A stretch of 26,762 nucleotides of DNA from an uncultured Acidobacteriota bacterium (lineage in GTDB: Bacteria; Acidobacteriota; Thermoanaerobaculia; UBA5066; Gp7-AA6): positions 1 to 26,762 of the forward strand of contig CAVXTP010000005.1 in the NCBI GenBank assembly GCA_963764715.1, read 5' to 3'. The notes beneath the pieces are model-generated. The model was not told the origin of the DNA. It searched no databases and saw only the letters and a list, made by a program, of their open reading frames with translations. A program made the translations under genes and the position numbers. This document shows, piece by piece, positions 8,175 to 20,232 of the stretch. The first letter of the stretch is position 1; the number at the start of each line of letters is the position of its first letter.

Positions 8175-8527
8175 CGCGGTTCGGTCGGGATGGGCCGGCG
8201 TGTAGAAGGACGTCCCCCGGACGTTCTCGTCGATCCCGAGCTTGCGGTGAATGGGCGGGAAGGCGCGCTGGTCGCAGTCCATGCGCTCGCACAGCCGGCA
8301 GGTGATCCCGATCGGGACGGCCGCGGCGGGGTTGTTCACGTCGACGCTGTCCCCGTAGACGAGGTGGCGGGCGTGGCTGACCTCGCAGCCGAGAGAGATG
8401 GCGTGGAGGGGGTGCGCGGACCCGAAACCGCCGAGGCTCTGACTGACCGTGCGGGCGACGCAGGGTAGGTCGTCCCGTCGGGCATGCGCGAGATCTGGGT
8501 CCGGACGATGCCCGGCGTCATGAACGC
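8172..8527 (-). pseudogene. 5'-truncated, frameshifted C-terminal fragment of a short-chain fatty acyl-CoA regulator (ScfR/RamB/PrpR family, DUF2083 domain)
   Basis: Reads AFMTPGIVRTQISRMPDGTTY, then a 1-nt frameshift at ~8463, then CVARTVSQSLGGFGSAHPLHAISLGCEVSHARHLVYGDSVDVNNPAAAVPIGITCRLCERMDCDQRAFPPIHRKLGIDENVRGTSFY...*. MPDG..Y..ART, LGC....A..LVY and PIG..CR.C.R.DC.QRAFP are hallmark motifs. The HTH and central domains are absent. Confidence 0.85.
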
Positions 8528-8537
8528 GGGGGGGGGC

Positions 8538-9952: not shown

Positions 9953-10462
9953 GTGGCCGCCCTGGAGCCGGGAGCTCCCTTTCCGAAGATCTCTCTCCGC
10001 GACGAATCCGGCGCGGCCGCCGACCCGAAGCGCGCCGGCGAAACCGTCTACGCCGTGTTCAAGACCACGTGCCCGACCTGCGAGCTGACGTGGCCGTTCC
10101 TCGAGCGGATCCGGCGGATCGCCGAGGGCGGCGGTTTCTCGATCGTCGCCATCACGCAGGACGACCCGGCCAAGACGAAGGCGTTCAACGCCCGGCTCGG
10201 CACGAAGCTCGAGACGCTCTACGACCGCGAGCCCTGGCCGGCCTCGAACGCGCTCGGCCTCGAGAACGTTCCGACGCTCTATCGCGTCGGCGCCGACGGC
10301 AAGATCGCCGAATCGATCGTCGGCTTCGACCGCGCCGGGATGCAGGGCCTCGCCCGCCGCGCCGCCGCGGCCGCGGGCCGGGCGCCGGTCGAGCTCTTCT
10401 CCGCGTCCGACCACGCTCCCCCATTCAAACCCGGTTGAGGATCCCGAAACGCCGGCAGGTAG
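9953..10462 (+). CDS. TlpA/AhpC-like thioredoxin-fold protein (CPTC), probable selenoprotein with UGA(10436-10438)=Sec; 169 aa with readthrough, 161 aa if UGA is a stop
   Basis: FKTTCPTC CxxC, AITQDD, VPTL cis-Pro motif. The C-terminus PPFKPG-TGA-GSRNAGR-TAG has a SECIS-like hairpin right after the UGA. Confidence 0.85.
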
Positions 10463-10466
10463 CCGG
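10436..10466 (+). promoter_or_regulatory. Putative bacterial SECIS element
   Basis: UGA, 13 nt, stem CCGGC(10452-10456)/GCCGG(10462-10466), loop AGGUA with G at loop position 2, 18 nt between UGA and loop. GCAGGU also occurs in the E. coli fdhF SECIS apical region. Confidence 0.7.
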
Positions 10467-10478
10467 AGAAAGCACCCC

Positions 10479-12032
10479 GTGAGCTCCAAGCCCCAGACCC
10501 TCGGAGACCTGAAGTCGTCCGGCTACGCCTCGCGCGGCATCAAGGAAGAGCTCCGCGGCAACCTCTGCCGTGCCCTCGCGAAAGGCGAGAACCCCTTCGC
10601 CGGCATCCACGGATACGAGCGCACCGTCCTGCCGGCGCTGCACAACGCCATCCTCTCGAAGCACGACCTGCTCCTCCTCGGGCTTCGCGGCCAGGCCAAG
10701 ACGCGCCTGCTGCGGATGCTCGTGAATCTCCTCGACGCCGAGATCCCGGCGATCGCCGGAAGCGAGCTGAACGAGGACCCCTTCGCGCCGATCACGAAGT
10801 ACGGCCGGCGCATCCTCGCCGACAAGGGCGATGCCGCGCCCATCGTCTGGATCCCGCGGGAAGAGCGCTACCGCGAGAAGCTCGCGACGCCCGACGTCAC
10901 GATCGCCGACCTCATCGGCGACATCGACCCGATCAAGGCCGCCACCGAGCGGCGCGCCTACTCCGACGAGGAGGTCATCCACTACGGCATCGTGCCGCGC
11001 ACCAACCGCGGCATCTTCGCGATCAACGAGCTGCCCGACCTCCAGCCCCGCATCCAGGTCGGGCTCCTGAACATCCTCGAGGAACGCGACCTGCAGATCC
11101 GGGGCTTCCCGGTCCGGATCCCGCTCGACATCCTGCTCGTCTTCTCGGCGAACCCCGAGGACTACACCAACCGCGGCAACATCATCACGCCGCTCAAGGA
11201 CCGCATCTCCTCGCAGATCTTCACGCACTACCCCGAGGACGTGAAGACCGCGGCGAAGATCACGGCCCAGGAGGCGTGGGTCGAGCGCGACGGAGGGCCG
11301 AAGATCGAGATCCCGGACCTCTTTCGCGAGCTCGTCGAGGAGATCGCCTTCGCGGCCCGGGCGTCCGAGTTCGTCGACCAGTCCTCGGGCGTCTCGGCGC
11401 GGATGCCGATCTCGGCGATCGAGATCCTCGCCTCGAACCTCGAGCGGCGCGGCCTCGTCAACGGCGAGGCGCGCGTCTCGCCCCGCCTCTGCGACCTGCC
11501 CGCGACGCTCCCGGCGATCACCGGCAAGGTCGAGATGGTCTACGAGGGCGAGCAGCAGGGCGCCGAGGTCGTCGCGAAGAAGCTGATCGGGACGGCCGTC
11601 AAGAAGCTCTTCGACGCCAAGTTCCCGGCGCCGGACTCCGGCCGGCCCTCGGAGCGCCGCCGCCAGGAGGCGGAGGACGACGAGGAGGCCGCCGGGCCGC
11701 AGCGCCGCGGGCGGCTCGCCCCGCCGCCGCCCGAGAAGGTCCACCCGCTCTACGAGCCGATCGTCGCCTGGTTTGCCGCCGGCAACAAGATCACGCTGTC
11801 GGACGACGCGCCGTTCTCGGAGCACCTGGCCGCACTGCAATCGGTCCCGAGCCTGAAGAAGGCGGTCGAGGAGCACTTCTCCCCGGCGTCGAAGGAGGAG
11901 CTCGCGATCGGGATGGAGCTCGTCCTCGAGGGACTCACGCAGCACCTGAAGATCGCCCGCCAGGACCTCGACTCGCGCGTCTCCTACACGGAGATGCTCA
12001 AGTTCAACCTCGTGCGGAACCGGGCGAACTGA
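10479..12032 (+). CDS. AAA+ ATPase, magnesium-chelatase-like / VWA-associated (Rv0958-like)
   Basis: Walker A GLRGQAKT, EKLATPDVTIADLIGDIDPIKAA, NRGIFAINELPDL (Walker B variant), SANPEDYTNRG.IITPLKDRI, SGVSARM; GGAG SD at 10465-10468. Confidence 0.9.
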   Translation: MSSKPQTLGDLKSSGYASRGIKEELRGNLCRALAKGENPFAGIHGYERTVLPALHNAILSKHDLLLLGLRGQAKTRLLRMLVNLLDAEIPAIAGSELNEDPFAPITKYGRRILADKGDAAPIVWIPREERYREKLATPDVTIADLIGDIDPIKAATERRAYSDEEVIHYGIVPRTNRGIFAINELPDLQPRIQVGLLNILEERDLQIRGFPVRIPLDILLVFSANPEDYTNRGNIITPLKDRISSQIFTHYPEDVKTAAKITAQEAWVERDGGPKIEIPDLFRELVEEIAFAARASEFVDQSSGVSARMPISAIEILASNLERRGLVNGEARVSPRLCDLPATLPAITGKVEMVYEGEQQGAEVVAKKLIGTAVKKLFDAKFPAPDSGRPSERRRQEAEDDEEAAGPQRRGRLAPPPPEKVHPLYEPIVAWFAAGNKITLSDDAPFSEHLAALQSVPSLKKAVEEHFSPASKEELAIGMELVLEGLTQHLKIARQDLDSRVSYTEMLKFNLVRNRAN

Positions 12033-13969: not shown

Positions 13970-14032
13970 AGGTTCGGGGCTTCGCATCCCTCTCCGATCG
14001 GTGTAGATTTGGACCACGCTTCGGGAGGTGCC

Positions 14033-16168
14033 ATGCCGCTTCGCCGCCCGGCTTTCATCGTTCCATGTCTATTCGCCGTCGCCGCGGGCGCGTCGGCGCA
14101 GTTTCCGGTCGCCGGCCCGGAGTTTCCCGTCAACGCCGCCACGACCGGGGACCAGCGCGGGCCCGACGTCGCGCCCCTCGACGGGGGGAAGATGGTCGTG
14201 GCCTGGTCCTCCGGCTCTCCCTCGAAGGTGACCGCCCGCTTCTTCGACTCGACCGGGGCGCCGCTCGCGGGAGAATTCGTGGTCAACAACTACACCGGCA
14301 GCCAGTACTCGCCGCAGGTCGCCGCCGATCTCGCCGGTAACTTCGTGATCGTCTGGTCCGACCAGGGCCGCAACGACGGCAGCATCTTCTTCGATCGCCG
14401 CGACCACAACGGCGGGATCTTGAACGGCGCCGTCCCCGTCGAGACCTACACCACCGGTCTGCAGCAGAACCCGGCCGTCGCGATGTCGGCCGCCGGCCAG
14501 TTCGTCATCGTCTGGCAGAGCTATTCGGGCATCGACCCGTCCGATTCGGGCGTGTTCGGCCAGCGCTTCGGTTCGAATGGCGGCAAGCTCGGCGGCGAAT
14601 TTCAGATCAACCAGTACACGACGGGCTACCAGCGCAACCCCCGCGTGGCGATGCTCACGAGCGGCGAGTTCATCGTGACGTGGAGCAGCCAGCAGGACGC
14701 CCAGAGCGGTGCCGTCATGGCGCGCCGCTACGATAACGACGGCAACCCCCTCGGCGGAGAGTTCCAGGTCAACACGACCGAGCTCGGCGCGCAGTATCGG
14801 CCGGACGTCGCGTTCGACGCCTCCGCGCAGGCCATCGTGGTGTGGCAGAGCTTCCTGCAGGACGGCGACGGGCCGGGAATCTTCGGCCAGCGGCTCGACG
14901 GGTCGGGCAACAAGCTCGGACCGGAGTTCAACGTGAACACGTACACGACGGGAACGCAGCGCAGCCCGCGCGTGGCCGCCGGCCCGGAGGACGACTTCAC
15001 GGTCGTCTGGGAGAGCTTCGGCAACGAGGGCGACCCGAACAGCGAGGCGATCGTCGCGCAGCATTTCGAAGGCAACGGGCACCGGGACCAGGCCGAAACG
15101 GTCGTCAACGCGACCGCGACCGGGAACCAGCAGCTGCCGAACATCGTCGCCGACGACCGGGGGCAGTTCGTGACGGTCTGGGAGAGCGCGGGCCAGGACG
15201 GATCGGGATACGGCATCTTCGGCCGCGAGCGCGAGGTTCCCCGCGGCGCGCCCGCCAGTGTCGATGCGCACGCGAGCGGCGGCGTGTCGAACGTCAACGG
15301 CGTCCTCGAGACCGGCGAGCGCGTGAAGGTCGAAACGGCTTACCGCAACACGTCCGGGGCGCCGCTCCCGCTGACGGGAACGGCGTCGAACTTCACGGGC
15401 CCGGCCGGGGACGCCTACCTCCTCAACGACTCCACGGCCGATTACGACACGATCCCGGTCAACATGACCGTCGGCTGCCAGGGCGCCTCCGCCAATTGTT
15501 ACGAGATGACCGTGTCCGGGCCGCGGATGACGCCCCACTGGGACGCAACCTTCGACGAGACTCTGAGCGACGGGCACTCGAAGCGCTGGTCGCTCCACGT
15601 CGGCGGAAGCTTCGCCGACGTGCCTCAGAACGCCTTTTACCCGTTCATCGAGAACCTCTTTCACAACGGCGTGACCGGCGGCTGCGCCACCGGCTACTGC
15701 CCCGCGAGCAGCGTCACGCGGGCGCAGATGGCGGTCTTTCTGCTCAAGGCGCGCTGGGGAGCAGCCTTCGTTCCGGCGCCCGCGACCGGGACGGCCTTTG
15801 CGGACGTGGCGGCCGGCAATCCGTTTGCGCCGTGGATCGAGGAGCTCGCCCGCGAGGGCGTGACGGGCGGCTGCGGCGGAGGGAACTACTGCCCGAACAA
15901 CGCCGTCACGCGCCAGCAGATGGCGGTCTTCCTGCTGAAGACCCACTACGGCCCGGCCTACACTCCCCCGGCGGGCGTCGGCCTCTTCTCGGACGTGGCC
16001 TGCCCCTCCGTCTTCTGCGACTTCATCGAGGACCTCTACAACCAGCAGATCACCGGCGGCTGCCAGACCAACCCGGTCCTGCTGTACTGCCCCGGCAACT
16101 CGGTCCTTCGCCAGCAGATGGCGGTCTTCCTCGTCAAGACGTTCCTGCTCCAGCTCTACGGAAACTGA
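14033..16168 (+). CDS. Secreted protein: seven beta-propeller-like repeats, linker domain and three Cys-paired SLH-like repeats
   Basis: GGAGGT SD before ATG 14033; signal peptide ending ASA-Q; seven EFxVNxxTTGxQxxPxVA...FxVxW repeats; FxDV...TGGC..G.YCP...VTRxQMAVFLLK x3. Confidence 0.88.
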   Translation: MPLRRPAFIVPCLFAVAAGASAQFPVAGPEFPVNAATTGDQRGPDVAPLDGGKMVVAWSSGSPSKVTARFFDSTGAPLAGEFVVNNYTGSQYSPQVAADLAGNFVIVWSDQGRNDGSIFFDRRDHNGGILNGAVPVETYTTGLQQNPAVAMSAAGQFVIVWQSYSGIDPSDSGVFGQRFGSNGGKLGGEFQINQYTTGYQRNPRVAMLTSGEFIVTWSSQQDAQSGAVMARRYDNDGNPLGGEFQVNTTELGAQYRPDVAFDASAQAIVVWQSFLQDGDGPGIFGQRLDGSGNKLGPEFNVNTYTTGTQRSPRVAAGPEDDFTVVWESFGNEGDPNSEAIVAQHFEGNGHRDQAETVVNATATGNQQLPNIVADDRGQFVTVWESAGQDGSGYGIFGREREVPRGAPASVDAHASGGVSNVNGVLETGERVKVETAYRNTSGAPLPLTGTASNFTGPAGDAYLLNDSTADYDTIPVNMTVGCQGASANCYEMTVSGPRMTPHWDATFDETLSDGHSKRWSLHVGGSFADVPQNAFYPFIENLFHNGVTGGCATGYCPASSVTRAQMAVFLLKARWGAAFVPAPATGTAFADVAAGNPFAPWIEELAREGVTGGCGGGNYCPNNAVTRQQMAVFLLKTHYGPAYTPPAGVGLFSDVACPSVFCDFIEDLYNQQITGGCQTNPVLLYCPGNSVLRQQMAVFLVKTFLLQLYGN

Positions 16169-16272
16169 CCCGCTTCGGTCCGAAATCTCGCGGATAGAGA
16201 TGTGAGGACCTCCCGGCTCCGGCCGGGATGTAGGATTCGGGCACGGTCTCGCCGATTCGATCAGGAGGACGC

Positions 16273-18480
16273 ATGAGGAAGCTCCCGGTGGCCGCCGCCG
16301 CGCTCGGTCTCTCTGCGCTCGCCGCGCTCGCGCGCGCCCAGGCGCCGGTCTTCGGCCCCGAGTTCCAGGCCAACAACTTCACGACGAGCGACCAGTACTC
16401 TTCGGGCGCGGCGAACCTCGGACCGAGCTGCAACTTCGTCGTGACGTGGGCCTCGGACGGAGCGGACGGGGACAAGACCGGCGTCGTCGGCCGGCTCTTC
16501 GATGCGGCCGGAAATCCGACCGGCGGAGAGTTCGCCGTCAACGTATCCACCACGGGCTACGAGGGTCTTCCGAGCGTCGCGTCGAACGACGCGGGAAGCT
16601 TCGTCGTGACCTGGACCGAATCCGCGACGGCGGCCCCGAGCGCCTACGAAGTGCGCGCGCGCCGGTTCAACTCCTCCGGCGCCCCGCAGGGCGGGGAGAT
16701 CATCGTCAACACGTACACGACCGGTACGCAGGCGCGTTCCGACGTCGCGCTCGATTCCGCCGGCAACTTCATCGTCGTCTGGCACAGCGGGCCGGACGTG
16801 GGCTCCGGGCAGCCCGCGCAGGACGGCGACAACCTCGGCGTATTCGCGCGGCGCTTCGACGCCAGCGGCAACCCGCTCTCCGCCGAGTTCCAGGTCAATG
16901 AGTACACCACGGGCTACCAGGCGCGGCCGACGGTCGCGATGCGACCGACCGGCGAGTTCATCGTGGCCTGGGCCAGCGCCCAGGACGATCAGCTCGGCGC
17001 GATCATGGCGCGGCGTTACAACAGCGCGGGGGCTCCGATCGGCGGCGAGTTCCAGGTGAACACGATGGAGCTCGGGGCGCAGTATCAGCCCGACGTGGCG
17101 CTCGATCTGGCCGGAAAGGCCATCGTCGTCTGGACGAGCTATGGCCAGGATGGCGGAGGGGCCGGGGTCTACGCCCAGCGTCTGGACGCCGCGGGGAACA
17201 AGCTCGGGCCGGAGTTCAACGTCAATACCTACACGACCGGTGCCCAGCTGCGGGCCCGCGTCGCGGCTCCGGCGATCACGGGCACGGACCCCGGGGCGTT
17301 CGCCATCATCTGGCAGTCCGCCGGACAGGACGGAAGCGATTTCGCCATTCGTGCCCAGCACTTCTTCGCGAACGGCCGGCGCGACGGCATCGAGCTGCCG
17401 GTCAACAACATCACCTCCGGATTCCAGGGGATTCCCGCGCTCGCCGCGCAGCCCAACGGCCAGTACGTTGCGACATGGGAGAGCAACAGCAACGACGGCT
17501 CGGGCTACGGCATCGCCGCACGCCTGGCCGGCGCGCCCCGCGCCGAGGCCAACTTCGCCGACATTCAGCACATTCCGGGCCCGCCACCGACCGGCAACGC
17601 GAATGGCGTGCTCGAAGTGGGGGAGACCGTCAACTACGAGACCGGGTATCGGAACTGGACGCCCGATCCGATGACGCTGACGGGGACGGCCTCCAATTTC
17701 CGGGGCCCTCTGGGCTTGACCTACGCGATCCCCGACGCGACCTCAGACTGGGGAACGATCGGGGGCCCGGGCGGCAACGCGGACTGCTTCCAGGCCACCG
17801 GCGACTGCTACCAGTTCTCGCTGACCGGAACCCGCCCCGCCGTTCAACACGTGGATACGGCCTTCGACGAGACGCTGTCCTACAACGGCTTTGTCCGCAC
17901 CGCGGCGCTCCACGTCGGCGAGAGCTTCCCGGACGTCCCCTCGGGCAACCTCTTTTACCCGTTCATCGAGAACCTTTTTCACAACGGCGTGACGGGAGGC
18001 TGCGCCGGGGGCGGCTACTGTCCCGGCAACAACGTGACTCGGGCTCAGATGGCGGTCTTCCTGTTGAAGTCGCGCTGGGGAGCGGTGTTTCTCCCGCCCC
18101 CCGCGACGGGCACGGCATTCCCGGACGTCCCCGCCTCGAACCCGTTCGCGCGATGGATCGAAGAGCTCTCCCGCGAGGGAGTCACCGGAGGATGCGGCGG
18201 CGGGCTCTACTGCCCCGACAACCCCGTCACGCGGCAGCAGATGGCGGTTTTCCTGCTCAAGACCAAGCTCGGCTCGACGTACGTGCCCGACCCGTGCGCC
18301 GGAGATTTCGACGACGTGCCCTGCCCCGGACAGTTCACCGACTGGATCGAGGACCTCGCAGGCCAGAGCATCACCGGCGGCTGCTCCGTCTCCCCGCCGC
18401 TCTACTGCCCGCTGAATTCCGTGCTTCGGCAGCAGATGGCAGCCTTCCTGGTCAAGACGTTCGCGCTCCGACTGTACTGA
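16273..18480 (+). CDS. Paralog of the upstream gene: secreted seven-repeat propeller protein with Cys-paired SLH-like C-terminus
   Basis: AGGAGG SD; signal peptide ending ARA-Q; same repeat and C-terminal module architecture. Confidence 0.9.
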   Translation: MRKLPVAAAALGLSALAALARAQAPVFGPEFQANNFTTSDQYSSGAANLGPSCNFVVTWASDGADGDKTGVVGRLFDAAGNPTGGEFAVNVSTTGYEGLPSVASNDAGSFVVTWTESATAAPSAYEVRARRFNSSGAPQGGEIIVNTYTTGTQARSDVALDSAGNFIVVWHSGPDVGSGQPAQDGDNLGVFARRFDASGNPLSAEFQVNEYTTGYQARPTVAMRPTGEFIVAWASAQDDQLGAIMARRYNSAGAPIGGEFQVNTMELGAQYQPDVALDLAGKAIVVWTSYGQDGGGAGVYAQRLDAAGNKLGPEFNVNTYTTGAQLRARVAAPAITGTDPGAFAIIWQSAGQDGSDFAIRAQHFFANGRRDGIELPVNNITSGFQGIPALAAQPNGQYVATWESNSNDGSGYGIAARLAGAPRAEANFADIQHIPGPPPTGNANGVLEVGETVNYETGYRNWTPDPMTLTGTASNFRGPLGLTYAIPDATSDWGTIGGPGGNADCFQATGDCYQFSLTGTRPAVQHVDTAFDETLSYNGFVRTAALHVGESFPDVPSGNLFYPFIENLFHNGVTGGCAGGGYCPGNNVTRAQMAVFLLKSRWGAVFLPPPATGTAFPDVPASNPFARWIEELSREGVTGGCGGGLYCPDNPVTRQQMAVFLLKTKLGSTYVPDPCAGDFDDVPCPGQFTDWIEDLAGQSITGGCSVSPPLYCPLNSVLRQQMAAFLVKTFALRLY

Positions 18481-18504
18481 CAGCTTTCATCTTCAGAATT
18501 CCTT

Positions 18505-18529
18505 AAGGGGCCGCGCGAGCGGCCCTTTT
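18505..18529 (+). terminator. Rho-independent terminator
   Basis: GGGCCGC-GCGA-GCGGCCC hairpin followed by TTTT, about 25 nt after the stop codon. Confidence 0.75.
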
Positions 18530-18570
18530 CGTTAGGATGGAGCGCACTGATCACAAAAGGGGGAATCGCC

Positions 18571-20232
18571 GTGCGATCCAAGACCTTCCTCGCGCTCGGC
18601 CTGTCGCTTGCCTTCTTCGCATCGAAGCCCGCCTCCGCGACCTTTCACGAGATCATGGTCAAGGAGGTCTTCCCGGGCACGGCCGCGGCTCCGAACGCGC
18701 AGTACGTCATGCTGCAGGCCTGGGCGCAGTTCCAGAACTCGGTCGGCGGCCACACGCTCACCGTCTACAACGCCGCCGGAGTCTCGGTCGGGACCTTCAC
18801 CTTTTCGGTGGGCGTCGGAAACAGCGCCAACCAGATGACGCTCTTCATCGCGACGCCCGAGGCGGCGACGCTCTTCAATCTGACCGCCGACCTCGCGATG
18901 ACACCCGTCATCGCGCCGGCCGGCGGGAAGGTCTGCTGGGAGACCTGGGACTGTGTCGCCTGGGGCAACTACACGGGCGCCGCCGCGGGGGTCGGGACGC
19001 CGTTCAACGTCCCGGTGGGTCTCGAGCGCGGAACCGTCATGCGGCGCCGCCTCGACGTCGCCGGCAATCCGAGCCTCCTCGAGGGGGCCGACGACACGAA
19101 CGACTCGGCGAACGACTTCCTGGAGGCGCCACCGGCGCCGCGCACCAACCCGGGGGTCAACGGGACTCTTCCCGCCTCGACCTGCGGAAACAGCACGCTC
19201 GAGGGCCTCGAGCAGTGCGACGACGGCAATACGGCTGCCCTCGACGGCTGCTCCGCCGTCTGCGCCTTCGAGCCGCTGCTCTTCCTTTCGGCGGAGGCGC
19301 AAATCGTGGATGTTTCGGGACTCGCGGCCTCCAACGGCGTGCTCGAGCCGGGAGAATCCGCTGCCTTTTTTACGACCTGGTTCAACAACACGTCCGCCGC
19401 CGCGACACTTTCCGGCACGGGCGTCCTCTTCACGGGCCCGGCGGGCGCCACGTACGACCTCCTCGATGGCGCCGCGCAGTACTCCCTGCCCTCCAACGCC
19501 TCCGCCCCCTGCTCGGCTTCCCTCGACTGTTATGCCATCGGCGTCTCGGCCCCGGCCGTGCGCCCCTCCCAGCACTGGGACGCGCAGTACTCCGAGGTCC
19601 TGTCGAACTATGCCTTTCAGACCTGGGCGGTCCACATCGGCGAGAGCTTCCCGGATGTGCCGACGGGCAACCAGTTCTACGCCTTCGTCGAGAACCTTTT
19701 CCACAATGGGATCACCGGCGGCTGCTCCGCCGGCAATTACTGCCCCGCCAATCCCGTCACGCGCGCCCAGATGGCGGTCTTCCTGCTCAAGGCGAAGCTC
19801 GGTTCGGGCTACGTCCCGCCGGCATGCACCGGCGCGGTGTTCACCGACGTTCCCTGCACCGGGGGCGCGTTCGACCCGTGGATCGAAGACCTCGCGGGCC
19901 GCGGAATCACGGGCGGATGCGGCGGCGGCAATTACTGTCCCGGCAACACGGTCACGCGGGGCCAGATGGCGGTCTTTCTCTTGAAGACGCTGGAAGGCTC
20001 GGCCTACGACCCTCCGGACTGCGCCGGGGTCTTCCAGGACGTCGCGTGCACGCCGGGAACCGGCTTTTCGGACTGGATCGAGGAGCTCTACGCCCGCCAG
20101 ATCACCGGGGGTTGCTCGGCGTCTCCCTTGCTCTACTGCCCGGACAATCCCAACAACCGCGGGCAGATGGCGGTTTTTCTCGTGAAGACGTTCTCGCTCC
20201 TGCTCTACGGAGCGCACCTGCAGTTGGTGTGA
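18571..20232 (+). CDS. Secreted protein: lamin-tail-like N-domain, one Myxococcus-type cysteine-rich repeat (DUF4215-like) and the same SLH-like C-terminal module
   Basis: Signal peptide ending ASA-T; IMVKEVF...AQYVML; CGNSTLEGLEQCDDGNTAALDGCSAVC; SNGVLEPGE linker; three TGGC/YCP/TRxQMAVFL repeats. Confidence 0.87.
   Translation: MRSKTFLALGLSLAFFASKPASATFHEIMVKEVFPGTAAAPNAQYVMLQAWAQFQNSVGGHTLTVYNAAGVSVGTFTFSVGVGNSANQMTLFIATPEAATLFNLTADLAMTPVIAPAGGKVCWETWDCVAWGNYTGAAAGVGTPFNVPVGLERGTVMRRRLDVAGNPSLLEGADDTNDSANDFLEAPPAPRTNPGVNGTLPASTCGNSTLEGLEQCDDGNTAALDGCSAVCAFEPLLFLSAEAQIVDVSGLAASNGVLEPGESAAFFTTWFNNTSAAATLSGTGVLFTGPAGATYDLLDGAAQYSLPSNASAPCSASLDCYAIGVSAPAVRPSQHWDAQYSEVLSNYAFQTWAVHIGESFPDVPTGNQFYAFVENLFHNGITGGCSAGNYCPANPVTRAQMAVFLLKAKLGSGYVPPACTGAVFTDVPCTGGAFDPWIEDLAGRGITGGCGGGNYCPGNTVTRGQMAVFLLKTLEGSAYDPPDCAGVFQDVACTPGTGFSDWIEELYARQITGGCSASPLLYCPDNPNNRGQMAVFLVKTFSLLLYGAHLQLV

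Follow-up and report, generated by a model that had tools for sequence, protein, structure and literature searches.

A putative thioredoxin-fold selenoprotein with a C-terminal Sec, encoded across the annotated stop in soil Acidobacteriota and related loci

Organization of the locus

The gene described here lies in a window of 26,762 nucleotides, which is the whole stretch of DNA analysed, and all of its features are read on the forward (+) strand. An open reading frame of 161 codons (9953-10438) begins with GTG at 9953, ends in ...PPFKPG and is closed by TGA. The 161-residue portion annotated by gene callers (9953..10435, +) corresponds to a thioredoxin-fold body of Redoxin/TlpA-ResA-like type, assigned by the Pfam Redoxin match, an AF2 model and Foldseek. 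Residue conservation delimits in it a CPTC motif (Cys40 and Cys43; codons 40-43, 10070..10081, +), and its end is formed by a K-P-G turn (10427..10435, +) preceding the TGA. The codon of Gly161 in this turn encodes Gly in 79/79 unique sequences, with all four synonymous codons in use, and Gly161 is invariant also in the family alignments A1 and A3.

Translation confirms the suggestion of an earlier note on this DNA that the frame goes on past the TGA (10436..10438, +) as GSRNAGR up to a TAG stop (10460..10462, +). With TGA translated as U, the proposed full coding sequence covers 9953..10462 (+) and comprises 169 codons, of which the putative Sec is codon 162, plus the TAG; the proposal draws on the conservation of TGA and tail throughout the family. 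The post-Sec tail G-S-R-N-A-G-R would occupy 10439..10459 (+). A SECIS-like hairpin (10452..10466, +), characterized by helix search, constraint test and covariation, pairs CCGGC (10452-10456) with GCCGG (10462-10466) around an AGGUA loop (10457-10461). Stem, loop and the distance of 18 nt (10439-10456) between TGA and loop are exactly as the earlier note had given them. The TAG is contained within the hairpin: its T and A are the last two bases of the loop and its G opens the 3' arm. Outside the selenoprotein gene, the context includes a GGAGA Shine-Dalgarno-like motif (10465-69), which shares 2 nt with the hairpin's 3' arm, and, at 10479, the GTG start codon of an AAA+ ATPase gene (together 10465..10481, +).

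Considered in the window alone, seven stop-free codons and a hairpin after TGA are no better than chance, and a stop-free stretch of this length behind a stop is unremarkable because the DNA is 69% GC. The combination of TGA, tail and hairpin rises above chance because of its conservation across related loci. A recoded genome was ruled out as an explanation, since elsewhere in the window UGA serves as an ordinary stop, ending 25/40 long ORFs.

Conservation of the TGA and of the codons behind it

Related loci (n = 80) were compared, and 79 of them reach the C-terminus, the remaining one (L048) ending at a contig edge; direct reading was possible in 72, and 7 required prior correction of assembly frameshifts or insertions. 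TGA follows the invariant Gly in 79/79 loci, belonging to Acidobacteriota, Armatimonadota and Chloroflexota, and TAA or TAG was found in none, although because the sequences are related neither this figure nor the shuffle counts given below represent independent probabilities. The background share of TGA in the same loci is 62% (972/1578 stops).

In Acidobacteriota, the TGA opens a U-x-S-R-N motif, and related short tails follow it in Armatimonadota and Chloroflexota. Among the 79 unique sequences, Ser at codon +2 is written as TCC in 31, TCG in 27, TCT in 8 and TCA in 2, Arg at codon +3 as CGC in 38, CGA in 15, CGG in 9, AGG in 4, and CGT and AGA in 2 each, and Asn at codon +4 as AAC in 62 and AAT in 6. 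Third-position entropy of the tail codons is 1.6-1.7 bits, compared with 0-0.85 bits at positions 1 and 2, and this pattern past the TGA equals that of the codons upstream of it. Such third-base wobble of Ser TCN, Arg CGN/AGR and Asn codons indicates that the tail is translated, and its occurrence from +2 to +4, with Arg written as both CGN and AGR, is the pattern of protein-coding selection downstream of UGA. The TAG stop is located at the window's position in 57/79 unique sequences. Comparison of the loci thus shows an invariant sense position in the UGA at 10436 and protein-level selection on the codons behind it. The opposite situation, named by the earlier note as speaking against its own reading, of homologues that stop at PG with nothing conserved behind, was not seen. 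Its claim that gene callers truncate the protein agrees with the database, where 119/120 homologues (among the matches listed) end at the same Gly.

Of 136 representatives inspected at position 162, 123 are truncated and lack it; the remaining 13 have Cys (9), Arg (2), Gly (1) or Ala (1) there. Sec-type (cut-short) representatives thus outnumber Cys-type ones about 14:1 (123 vs 9, n = 136). In the rare Cys homologues, Cys aligns with the UGA in a PGCxS[KR]N pattern, as proposed for checking in the earlier note. The PGCGS[KR]N-like tails mentioned there are represented by P0257 (...FGCGSRRGYGA), P0249 (...PGCRSKN), P0155 (...LGCASKN) and P0245 (...PGCESKRPA). The fused domain of Cys forms gave no Pfam match and has no relative in the window or in the loci.

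Sec decoding in related genomes

In 13 related loci, TGA occurs in line with Sec140 of FdhF (ARV-U-HGPTVA), marking Sec-type FdhA genes, and in L070 it aligns with Cys17 of SelD (CAG-U-ASK), marking a Sec-type SelD. Judged by this comparison of sequences, relatives are shown to decode Sec. When SelA, SelB and SelD of E. coli were used as tblastn queries, they gave no match in the window (26.8 kb) and a single match, to SelD, throughout the 80 loci. The only tRNA of the window is tRNA-Asn, and ARAGORN detected no tRNA-Sec among the 20 tRNAs in flanks of the 80 loci. Missing Sec machinery beside the gene is to be expected with flanks of 20 kb.

Hairpin at the TGA

Bacterial SECIS elements (bSECIS) are characterized by an apical loop of 3-9 nt on an upper stem of 4 bp or more, a G within the first two positions of the loop, spacing of 16-37 nt and MFE ≤ -7.5 kcal/mol, according to the 2026 review (PMC13188914). 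The hairpin in the window, already proposed as a SECIS in the earlier note, satisfies the four published constraints (5-nt loop, G at loop position 2 followed by another G, 5 bp, 18 nt) with MFE of -11.1 kcal/mol.

The ungapped helix search, which required a stem of 4 bp or more, G[G/U] close to the beginning of the loop and matching distance from the stop, located a hairpin in 72/80 family sequences, compared with 426/1555 (27%) controls, namely ordinary stops that end long ORFs of related genomes. Hairpins with at least 5 bp follow 61/80 family TGAs and 216/1555 (14%) control stops. As many as 30 distinct complementary stem pairs were observed among the 72 hairpins, for instance GCAGGCT/AGCCTGC, CGGAC/GTCCG and TCACT/AGTGA. 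Counted from the U of UGA, the loop G is nt 23 in 54/72 hairpins and nt 24 in 12/72; it is nt 23 in the window, in E. coli fdhF (K-12 sequence) and in 13/13 Sec-FdhA genes of related loci. A strict bSECIS test, in our own implementation of the published constraints using a single MFE of the whole region, was passed by 56/80 family sequences and 301/1553 controls, and when combined with spacing of 18-20 nt, by 48/80 and 34/1553, respectively. The hairpin is a short one, with 5 bp in the window, and failures amounted to 8/80 in the ungapped helix search and 24/80 in the strict MFE test.

Covariation was evaluated in two alignments. In the model-fitted one, which favours the structure because it was fitted to it, and which includes 9 off-site chance matches and misses 7 family sites (L063, L064, L067, L070, L074, L077 and L079), the score of 0.177 exceeds the 0.105 of shuffles (0/500 reach it) and that of every slid register. 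The signal is weak in the MAFFT alignment (67.6% paired, score 0.161 vs 0.145, reached by 78/500 shuffles), where the rows of Chloroflexota and Bryobacterales are out of register by at least one column and bulges occur in some stems. No Rfam family was found at the hairpin, the sole match there, mir-432 (E 6.9), being due to chance. A transcription terminator was also considered and rejected, as a terminator scan found no such site.

Fold and family assignment

The annotated protein scores above the cut-off of Pfam Redoxin (PF08534; 33.9 vs 26.6 bits) and below that of AhpC-TSA (23.8 vs 26 bits). The AF2 model (pLDDT 94.3) predicts a thioredoxin fold with CxxC at the N-terminus of a helix (residues 41-56, beginning at CPTC) and a cis-Pro loop. 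Its tail is predicted to be ordered, with mean pLDDT of 96 for residues 151-160 and 88 for 161-169. The top Foldseek matches are ResA 3c71 (E 1.9e-9), the DsbE-like 3gl3 and 4nmu, and TlpA 1jfu, with target-normalised TM of 0.79-0.84, and 3gl3 is also the best PDB match by sequence (4.9e-8). No hydrophobic N-terminal anchor is visible by eye in the sequence. Within the fold, Cys40 is present in 78/78 aligned sequences and 135/136 representatives, and V106-P107 (cis-Pro) is invariant. Cys43 is found in 124/136 representatives, replaced otherwise by Ser (9) or G/T/V (3), and CPTS forms (L040, L045 and L046) retain the TGA.

Membership in the peroxiredoxins (AhpC/TSA) was rejected because the PxxxTxxC motif is absent: Cys40 is preceded by YAVFKTT, which places Lys at -3 and Tyr at -7, and the peroxiredoxin-type motif PxxxTxxU has Thr three and Pro seven residues ahead of the peroxidatic position (PMC13188914). 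Peroxidase-like chemistry may nevertheless take place at the Sec. The NCBIfam cut-offs for ResA, DsbE and TlpA are not reached by the window protein (NF002854 23.4/170, TIGR00385 17.7/123, NF047696 14.6/230), nor is any NCBIfam cut-off by any of 42 members (0/42), all of which score 23-84 bits against the 170 of the ResA model. The VPGUxxT model NF041383 matches 0/42 members, even at E ≤ 1. The family comprises 337 clusters at 50% identity scoring below 1e-10, and fits none of the NCBIfam models nor any of the 119 prokaryotic selenoprotein families of the 2026 list (PMC13188914). It is most likely a large soil-bacterial selenoprotein family for which no description was found in these two sources.

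Gene neighbourhood

Neighbours were assessed by targeted tblastn and by Pfam scans of chosen genes. A neighbourhood of Thermoanaerobaculia type is formed by SBP (63 loci), AAA+ ATPase (60-63), HpcH (54) and vWA (51), with the AAA+ ATPase gene directly downstream, 41-406 nt behind the TGA, in 60-63 loci. Loci of this type share sequence between the hairpin's 3' arm and the ribosome-binding site of the next gene, and this overlap possibly constrains the sequence for reasons unrelated to Sec. The neighbourhood, SBP included, occurs in none of the 16 loci of Bryobacterales, Armatimonadota and Chloroflexota, AAA+, HpcH and vWA genes being downstream in 0/16, and neighbours differ among the seven of these 16 loci that were scanned. 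Chloroflexota loci have a NuoCD fusion and a 2x[4Fe-4S] protein upstream; in Bryobacterales loci a 2x[4Fe-4S] protein is located downstream, and upstream a pyridine-nucleotide disulfide oxidoreductase was seen in one of the loci scanned (L076). Conserved neighbours were dropped as a clue to function, there being no universal partner across groups. No gene for metal handling or selenium metabolism is a consistent neighbour in the loci examined.

Proposed function and alternative explanations

The best explanation, to which we assign a probability of about 0.85, is that the product of 9953-10462 is a cytoplasmic selenoprotein of 169 residues with a thioredoxin fold (TlpA/ResA-like), eight residues longer than annotated. 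SelB with Sec-tRNA(Sec) would bind the hairpin when the UGA occupies the A site, Sec162 would be inserted, and seven further codons would be read up to the UAG inside the hairpin. Sec162, just past the K-P-G turn, would be carried on a 30-residue C-terminal arm packed on the body, and could form a selenenylsulfide with Cys40, the first and exposed Cys of CPTC. If present, Cys43 would resolve this bond, leaving a Cys40-Cys43 disulfide. The arm would act as a mobile redox-active centre transferring electrons from CxxC to a substrate, in a manner similar to the GCUG arm of animal thioredoxin reductase; in the alternative order, it would attack an oxidant or disulfide first and then be recycled by Cys40/Cys43. 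Residue conservation makes Cys40 and Sec162 a plausible core redox pair, which sharpens the CPTC-to-Sec relay suggested in the earlier note.

If the TGA were a real stop, the 161-residue protein would be complete, and the RNA element behind it would control the next gene, for instance by a hairpin masking the ribosome-binding site. The overlap of GGAGA (10465-69) with the 3' arm, the AAA+ gene close behind in 63 loci and the similar-sized hairpins after 27% of control stops would fit such a role. However, TGA, tail and hairpin are kept in the 16 loci without AAA+, HpcH and vWA downstream, as well as in loci with repeats between the hairpin and the next gene. The complete lack of TAA or TAG in 79 loci, the coding-like wobble with Arg alternating between CGN and AGR, and the Cys forms that read through the same position further argue against a real stop, making it very improbable. 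Distinctly unlikely, too, is readthrough of the UGA that is not, or not only, due to Sec, by near-cognate or other recoding, or with forms of 161 and 169 residues coexisting in a ratio set by selenium. Termination competes with Sec insertion at UGA in bacterial selenoproteins generally, and Arg in two representatives and Gly in one (P0262 PGRGTKN, P0194 PGGGGAA) could be taken as traces of other decoding. Yet Arg (CGA) and Gly (GGA) are one base away from TGA and are each limited to single clusters, Cys occupies the position in 9/13 full-length representatives, which is the usual Sec/Cys signature, and the hairpin has SelB-type features at the register of fdhF.

Granting a selenoprotein, Sec162 could also be a stand-alone ligand or carrier, delivering selenium, sulfur or a soft metal, with the thioredoxin fold as a scaffold and no CxxC relay. 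The G-U-x-S-[KR] motif resembles the selenophosphate synthetase loop G-[U/C]-x-x-K (CAG-U-ASK in L070), and the excess of Sec over Cys forms (~14:1) is in accordance with such a role. Metal-ligand roles have been proposed for the C-terminal Sec of the UXX-star and SaoC families (PMC13188914). Against this, Cys40 is as invariant as Sec162, the hallmarks of a redox fold (cis-Pro V106-P107, CPxC) are kept, and a consistent neighbour for metal handling or selenium metabolism is missing, so the carrier role appears fairly unlikely. A Cys40-Sec162 redox couple offers the simplest explanation for the invariance of Cys40 together with these hallmarks.

Adopting the selenoprotein with this couple, a broader picture can be offered tentatively. 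The loci would represent an undescribed and unusually Sec-dependent family, widespread in soil Acidobacteriota, Chloroflexota and Armatimonadota, which would be a bacterial one-domain analogue of the GCUG arm: Sec, carried on a mobile arm, would pair with the leading Cys of CPxC. The SECIS of Thermoanaerobaculia would hold the true stop and overlap the ribosome-binding site of the AAA+ gene, which is highly conserved, and for this reason Sec decoding, and with it selenium supply, could gate translation of the downstream operon. If the selenoprotein reading is right, hundreds of ~160-aa entries named 'peroxiredoxin' or 'TlpA family protein' end just before their most reactive residue, and selenoproteomes of abundant soil lineages are undercounted. 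For annotation, the family could be recognized by [KR]-P-G-TGA-x-S-[RK]-N and, behind this signature, a hairpin whose G is nt 23, and it would provide a simple bacterial system for studying why flexible redox arms prefer Sec.

Comparison with known systems

The protein shares with TlpA, ResA and DsbE (CcmG) the fold, the position of the active site, CxxC at the helix start and V-P. It differs from them in having FKTTCPTC in place of WCxxC and in the additional 30-residue C-terminal arm with the putative Sec. Animal thioredoxin reductase has a C-terminal GCUG arm in which Sec, next to Gly, works together with a dithiol centre in another part of the protein. The likeness to this arm would be functional and the proteins are unrelated: the reductase, a flavoenzyme, has Cys and Sec adjacent to each other and a eukaryotic SECIS in the 3'-UTR, whereas the present protein consists of a single thioredoxin fold and its bacterial hairpin spans the stop codon.

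Within the same superfamily, Sec is used by Prx-like 3 or 'Redoxin family protein' (PF08534, UxxC), by UGC-containing TlpA and by Prx-like UxxC/UxxS proteins, in which it substitutes an active-site Cys (UxxC, UGC, UxxS; PMC13188914 and GOS table). Sec in place of an active-site Cys is likewise described for the other thioredoxin-fold selenoproteins that the 2026 review lists (PMC13188914). The architecture proposed here is unusual, with an intact CxxC, both active-site positions being Cys, Sec added 119 residues past Cys43 on a C-terminal tail, and a SECIS extending across the stop codon. The VPGUxxT family (NF041383, OS_HP5) is also described as thioredoxin-like with P-G-U (PMC13188914), and VPG-U occurs in the present family in L027, L034, L040 and L045. 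The two are set apart by the HMM and by the motif as listed in that source, U being followed by x-x-T there and by x-S-[RK]-N here.

In the 'UXX-star', 'KCU-star' and 'GUXX-star' families of Haft and co-workers, Sec lies a few residues from the C-terminus (PMC13188914), as proposed here. Because of this proximity, in the 'star' families and in the present one alike, the SECIS must reach past the stop codon. The 'star' families have other folds, and the present family matches none of their NCBIfam models. With the SECIS of E. coli fdhF, the hairpin shares the G-G-U / G-U apical loop, in which G is nt 23 counted from the U of UGA; it differs in a shorter upper stem (5 bp in the window), in lacking the long lower helix and in being accompanied by only seven sense codons after the UGA.

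The redoxin gene and its in-frame TGA

The open reading frame at 9953-10438 (+) codes for 161 amino acids from a GTG start, with the CPTC motif at residues 40-43. It scores 33.9 bits against Pfam Redoxin (cut-off 26.6) and slightly under the cut-off of AhpC-TSA. The frame ends in ...APPFKPG-TGA and continues as G-S-R-N-A-G-R to a TAG at 10460-10462, as the earlier note had described. The CCGGC/GCCGG stem reported there is also present on the same strand (CCGGC 10452-10456, loop AGGTA 10457-10461, GCCGG 10462-10466), exactly 18 nt separating the TGA from the loop. These sequence observations are confirmed, and the interpretation of the gene as a selenoprotein gene with a SECIS element is supported, at a probability of roughly 0.85. 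Seven stop-free codons past a stop are unremarkable at high GC, which is 69% in the window; the pattern in the window alone is no better than chance, so the case depends on comparison with relatives. UGA is not globally reassigned, since TGA is the most frequent ordinary stop in the window, ending 25 of 40 long ORFs.

Conservation of the TGA and of the codons past it

A word-indexed protein search returned 180 proteins at E ≤ 0.001. Among the best 120 of these, 119 end at the same Gly (...[KR][PA]G), in line with the proposal that gene callers truncate the protein; P0104 alone differs, being a frame-shifted call which reads the same downstream DNA in a different frame. An exhaustive profile-free search yielded 1176 representatives at E ≤ 0.001 (337 at ≤ 1e-10), and the same Gly is the C-terminal end in 122 of the 148 newly listed ones.

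Related DNA loci, the best 80 of 92 confirmed, come from Acidobacteriota (mainly Thermoanaerobaculia, also Bryobacterales/Solibacteraceae), Armatimonadota, and Chloroflexota, with protein identities to the window redoxin from 89% down to 32%. Leaving out L048, in which a contig end cuts the gene, TGA could be read directly after the Gly in 72 of 79 loci, and it was recovered in seven more (L004, L035, L049, L056, L060, L065, and L066) after allowing for an assembly frameshift or insertion. TGA thus occupies position 162 in 79/79 loci, and TAA or TAG in none, against a background of 972 TGA among 1578 long-ORF stops of the same loci. As the sequences are related, the pooled value of 2e-17 for this conservation serves to illustrate it and should not be taken as a probability. 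A frameshift interrupts the family gene in the MAG contigs of L004, L035, L049, L065, and L066; because the conserved C-terminal end, the TGA, and the tail are picked up again in a different frame, assembly indels seem likelier here than pseudogenes.

Codons past the TGA were compared in 79 unique sequences. Codon +1 is unconstrained (G, S, T, E, D, A, and others), while the other three positions of the GSRN motif are conserved in most sequences: codon +2 encodes Ser in 68 (TCC 31, TCG 27, TCT 8, TCA 2) and Ala in the other 11, codon +3 Arg in 70 (CGN 64, AGR 6), and codon +4 Asn in 68 (AAC 62, AAT 6). Entropies at codon positions 1/2/3 are 0.58/0/1.70 for +2, 0.85/0.62/1.62 for +3, and 0.55/0.23/0.83 for +4, a pattern matching that of the Gly, Pro, and Lys codons 5' of the TGA. 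This third-position variability, like that of the codons before the TGA, argues that the codons following it are indeed translated. In the Thermoanaerobaculia type the predicted tail reads U-x-S-R-N-A-G-[RS]-stop; Bryobacterales have U-[GS]-S-[RK]-N-stop, Armatimonadota U-G-S-R-R-..., and Chloroflexota U-G-A-[EA]-H-R-H-stop or close variants of it.

The hairpin downstream of the TGA

Helices were searched as ungapped stems of at least 4 bp, with a loop of 3-9 nt starting at nt 19-27 (counted from the U of UGA) and G[G/U] near the loop start. Such a hairpin was found in 72/80 sequences, compared with 426/1555 (27%) ordinary stops in related genomes and 21% of shuffles; with at least 5 bp, the corresponding values are 61/80, 216/1555 (14%), and 10%. 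In the eight sequences failing the search, the stem looks bulged or mismatched by eye. The family uses 30 distinct stem pairs, among them the full compensatory sets CCGGC/GCCGG, GCAGGCT/AGCCTGC, CGGAC/GTCCG, TCACT/AGTGA, and GGCTCCC/GGGAGTC. In 54 of the 72 hairpins the loop G lies at nt 23, and 12 have it at nt 24.

The region from nt 4 to 60 was folded into its single MFE structure and checked against four bSECIS constraints published in the Fig. 2 legend of PMC13188914. All four hold for the window hairpin (-11.1 kcal/mol, spacing 18, AGGUA, 5 bp), as well as for 56/80 family sequences versus 301/1553 controls; with a spacing of 18-20 nt, the counts are 48/80 versus 34/1553. Covariation by pair counting on a naive alignment is weak. 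The covariance-model alignment, which leans towards structure, includes 9 off-site chance matches, and misses 7 family sites (L063, L064, L067, L070, L074, L077, and L079), has 74.1% of its cells paired, with 25 double-sided changes (shuffle mean 12.5) and a covariation score of 0.177 (shuffle mean 0.105). Neither value is reached in any of 500 shuffles, and the score tops all slid registers. At the hairpin, a terminator scan detected no terminator-like site and Rfam no family match.

The next gene, encoding an AAA+ ATPase (10479-12032 (+), GTG start), has its GGAGA motif (10465-10469) overlapping the 3' arm of the hairpin, so translation of the Sec tail might expose the ribosome-binding motif of this gene. 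In some loci the spacer ahead of the AAA+ gene, just past the hairpin, is filled with short tandem repeats, made of ATTTCGG units (L007, L013, L019) or GTGAC-type units (L020, L042, L057).

Cysteine homologues and protein architecture

Both the active site and position 161 lie within 136 of the newly listed 148 representatives. Among them, 123 lack position 162, 9 have Cys there, 2 have Arg, and Gly and Ala occur once each; Sec-type genes are thus far more numerous than Cys forms, and Cys does align with the TGA. Tails resembling PGCGS[KR]N, which the earlier note had mentioned, exist among short-tailed Cys forms, as in P0249 (PGCRSKN), P0155 (LGCASKN), P0257 (FGCGSRRGYGA), and P0245 (PGCESKRPA); others are P0178 (PGCVAAYL) and P0246 (PGCMSKQPA).

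In P0193, P0212, and P0269, PGC[TAV]SRHLE is followed by an extra domain, which in these proteins and in P0273-P0275 measures ~300 aa. It has no Pfam match and also stands alone, in widespread "hypothetical proteins" of ~380-400 aa (P0293, P0304, P0316). This domain could be a functional partner of the family; no relatives of it were found in the window or the 80 loci.

An AlphaFold2 model, built from the 78-sequence alignment with Sec entered as Cys, reached pLDDT 94.3 and pTM 0.90. In this model the C-terminal arm is ordered, its pLDDT averaging 96 over residues 151-160 and 88 over 161-169, short beta-bridges are predicted to edge the K-P-G turn, and Foldseek groups the body with ResA, DsbE, CcmG, and TlpA. 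Invariant columns of the alignment are C40, Q69, D91, V106, P107, G161, and U/C162. Cys43 is replaced in 12/136 representatives (Ser in 9; Gly, Thr, and Val in 1 each), and position 40 is other than Cys only in P0262 (Leu in the alignment). Loss of Cys43 concerns Sec-type members (CPTS in L040, L045, and L046) as well as two Cys forms (P0246, CPVV; P0257, CDTS). As Cys43 is lost in some members and Cys40 is kept in 135/136, the conserved pair is Cys40 and Sec162. This conservation suggests that Sec162 on the arm would form a selenenylsulfide with the exposed active-site Cys40, Cys43 serving as an optional resolving thiol, and thus that the redox relay proposed earlier may be narrowed to the Cys40-Sec162 pair.

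Selenocysteine decoding and gene neighbourhood

No tRNA-Sec, SelA, or SelB was detected within the window or the flanks of related loci. In 13 Thermoanaerobaculia-type loci (L007, L009, L017, L020, L024, L029, L033, L037, L052, L055, L056, L057, and L058, e.g. L058:2439), the family gene is preceded, 7-8 kb upstream, by a formate dehydrogenase alpha (FdhA) homologue. Its in-frame TGA aligns with Sec140 of E. coli FdhF (ARV-U-HGPTVA) and is followed by a strong hairpin, GGUGGCC-AGU[CU]U-GGCCGCC, with G23-U24 in the register of E. coli fdhF. These 13 represent unannotated classical selenoprotein genes in Thermoanaerobaculia-type MAGs. In Chloroflexota, L070:1-939 (-) encodes a homologue of E. 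coli SelD (41% identity) with a TGA (886-888) at the place of the catalytic Cys17 (CAG-U-ASK); this alignment identifies it as a Sec-type selenophosphate synthetase. The family tail G-U-x-S-[KR] is similar to its G-U-x-S-K motif. As classical selenoproteins, Sec-type FdhA and SelD argue that lineages carrying the family use Sec.

Neighbours are fixed in the Thermoanaerobaculia type, with a solute-binding protein upstream (51 loci) and AAA+ ATPase (63), HpcH-like (60), and vWA (54) genes downstream; none of them occurs in the 16 loci of other groups. The AAA+ protein (AAA_5/sigma-54-interaction-like) is 79-96% identical in 63 loci, versus about 43-89% for the redoxin. Beyond Thermoanaerobaculia, the family gene adjoins redox genes in the scanned loci. 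Both scanned Chloroflexota, L070 (7473-9932) and L074 (7373-9961), have a NuoC/NuoD fusion and a 2x[4Fe-4S] protein upstream, and in the two scanned Bryobacterales, L073 (10511-11038) and L076 (5468-6736 and 7294-7809), a gene for a ferredoxin-like 2x[4Fe-4S] protein follows after 75 nt; L076 also has a pyridine-nucleotide disulfide oxidoreductase directly upstream. No universal partner gene was found among the neighbours.

Elsewhere in the window, a 121-codon frame at 8175-8537 (-), adjoining ABC transporter and acetyl-CoA synthetase genes, matches PF09856, the short-chain fatty acyl-CoA regulator family. The match is restricted to the C-terminal region of the profile (positions 71-157 of 157); its N-terminal counterpart was not found. 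Three successive large ORFs (~730, 750, and 580 codons) at 13970-20229 (+), each with an S-layer homology domain, are followed by OmpA-like and PD40 (TolB-like) proteins.

Comparison with known selenoproteins

Members go by "peroxiredoxin", "thiol-disulfide isomerase/thioredoxin", or "TlpA disulfide reductase family protein" in databases, and Atlas clusters are named alike. NCBIfam release 20.0 holds no model of the family: 0/42 members reach any cut-off, and 0/42 match NF041383 (VPGUxxT) at E ≤ 1. The family is not mentioned in the portions of the deep-Sep (PMC12013277), BSepDB (PMC13326102), and Olavius (PMC1976440) papers covered here, and full-text searches turned up no description of it. 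Table 1 of PMC13188914 (119 families) lists several unrelated families with a C-terminal Sec and no redoxin with intact CxxC and a PG-U tail; its thioredoxin-fold selenoproteins carry Sec within the active-site motif (UxxC, UGC, UxxS). Likewise, the GOS "Prx-like 3, pfam08534", as it appears in an excerpt of PMC2398784, has UxxC, in contrast to the intact CPTC and tail Sec proposed here. Measured against these sources, a thioredoxin-fold selenoprotein with Sec on a C-terminal arm and a SECIS element across the stop codon is apparently undescribed. The family would thus belong to a known kind, the thioredoxin-fold selenoproteins, and differ from it in placing Sec on the C-terminal arm while the active-site CPTC stays intact.
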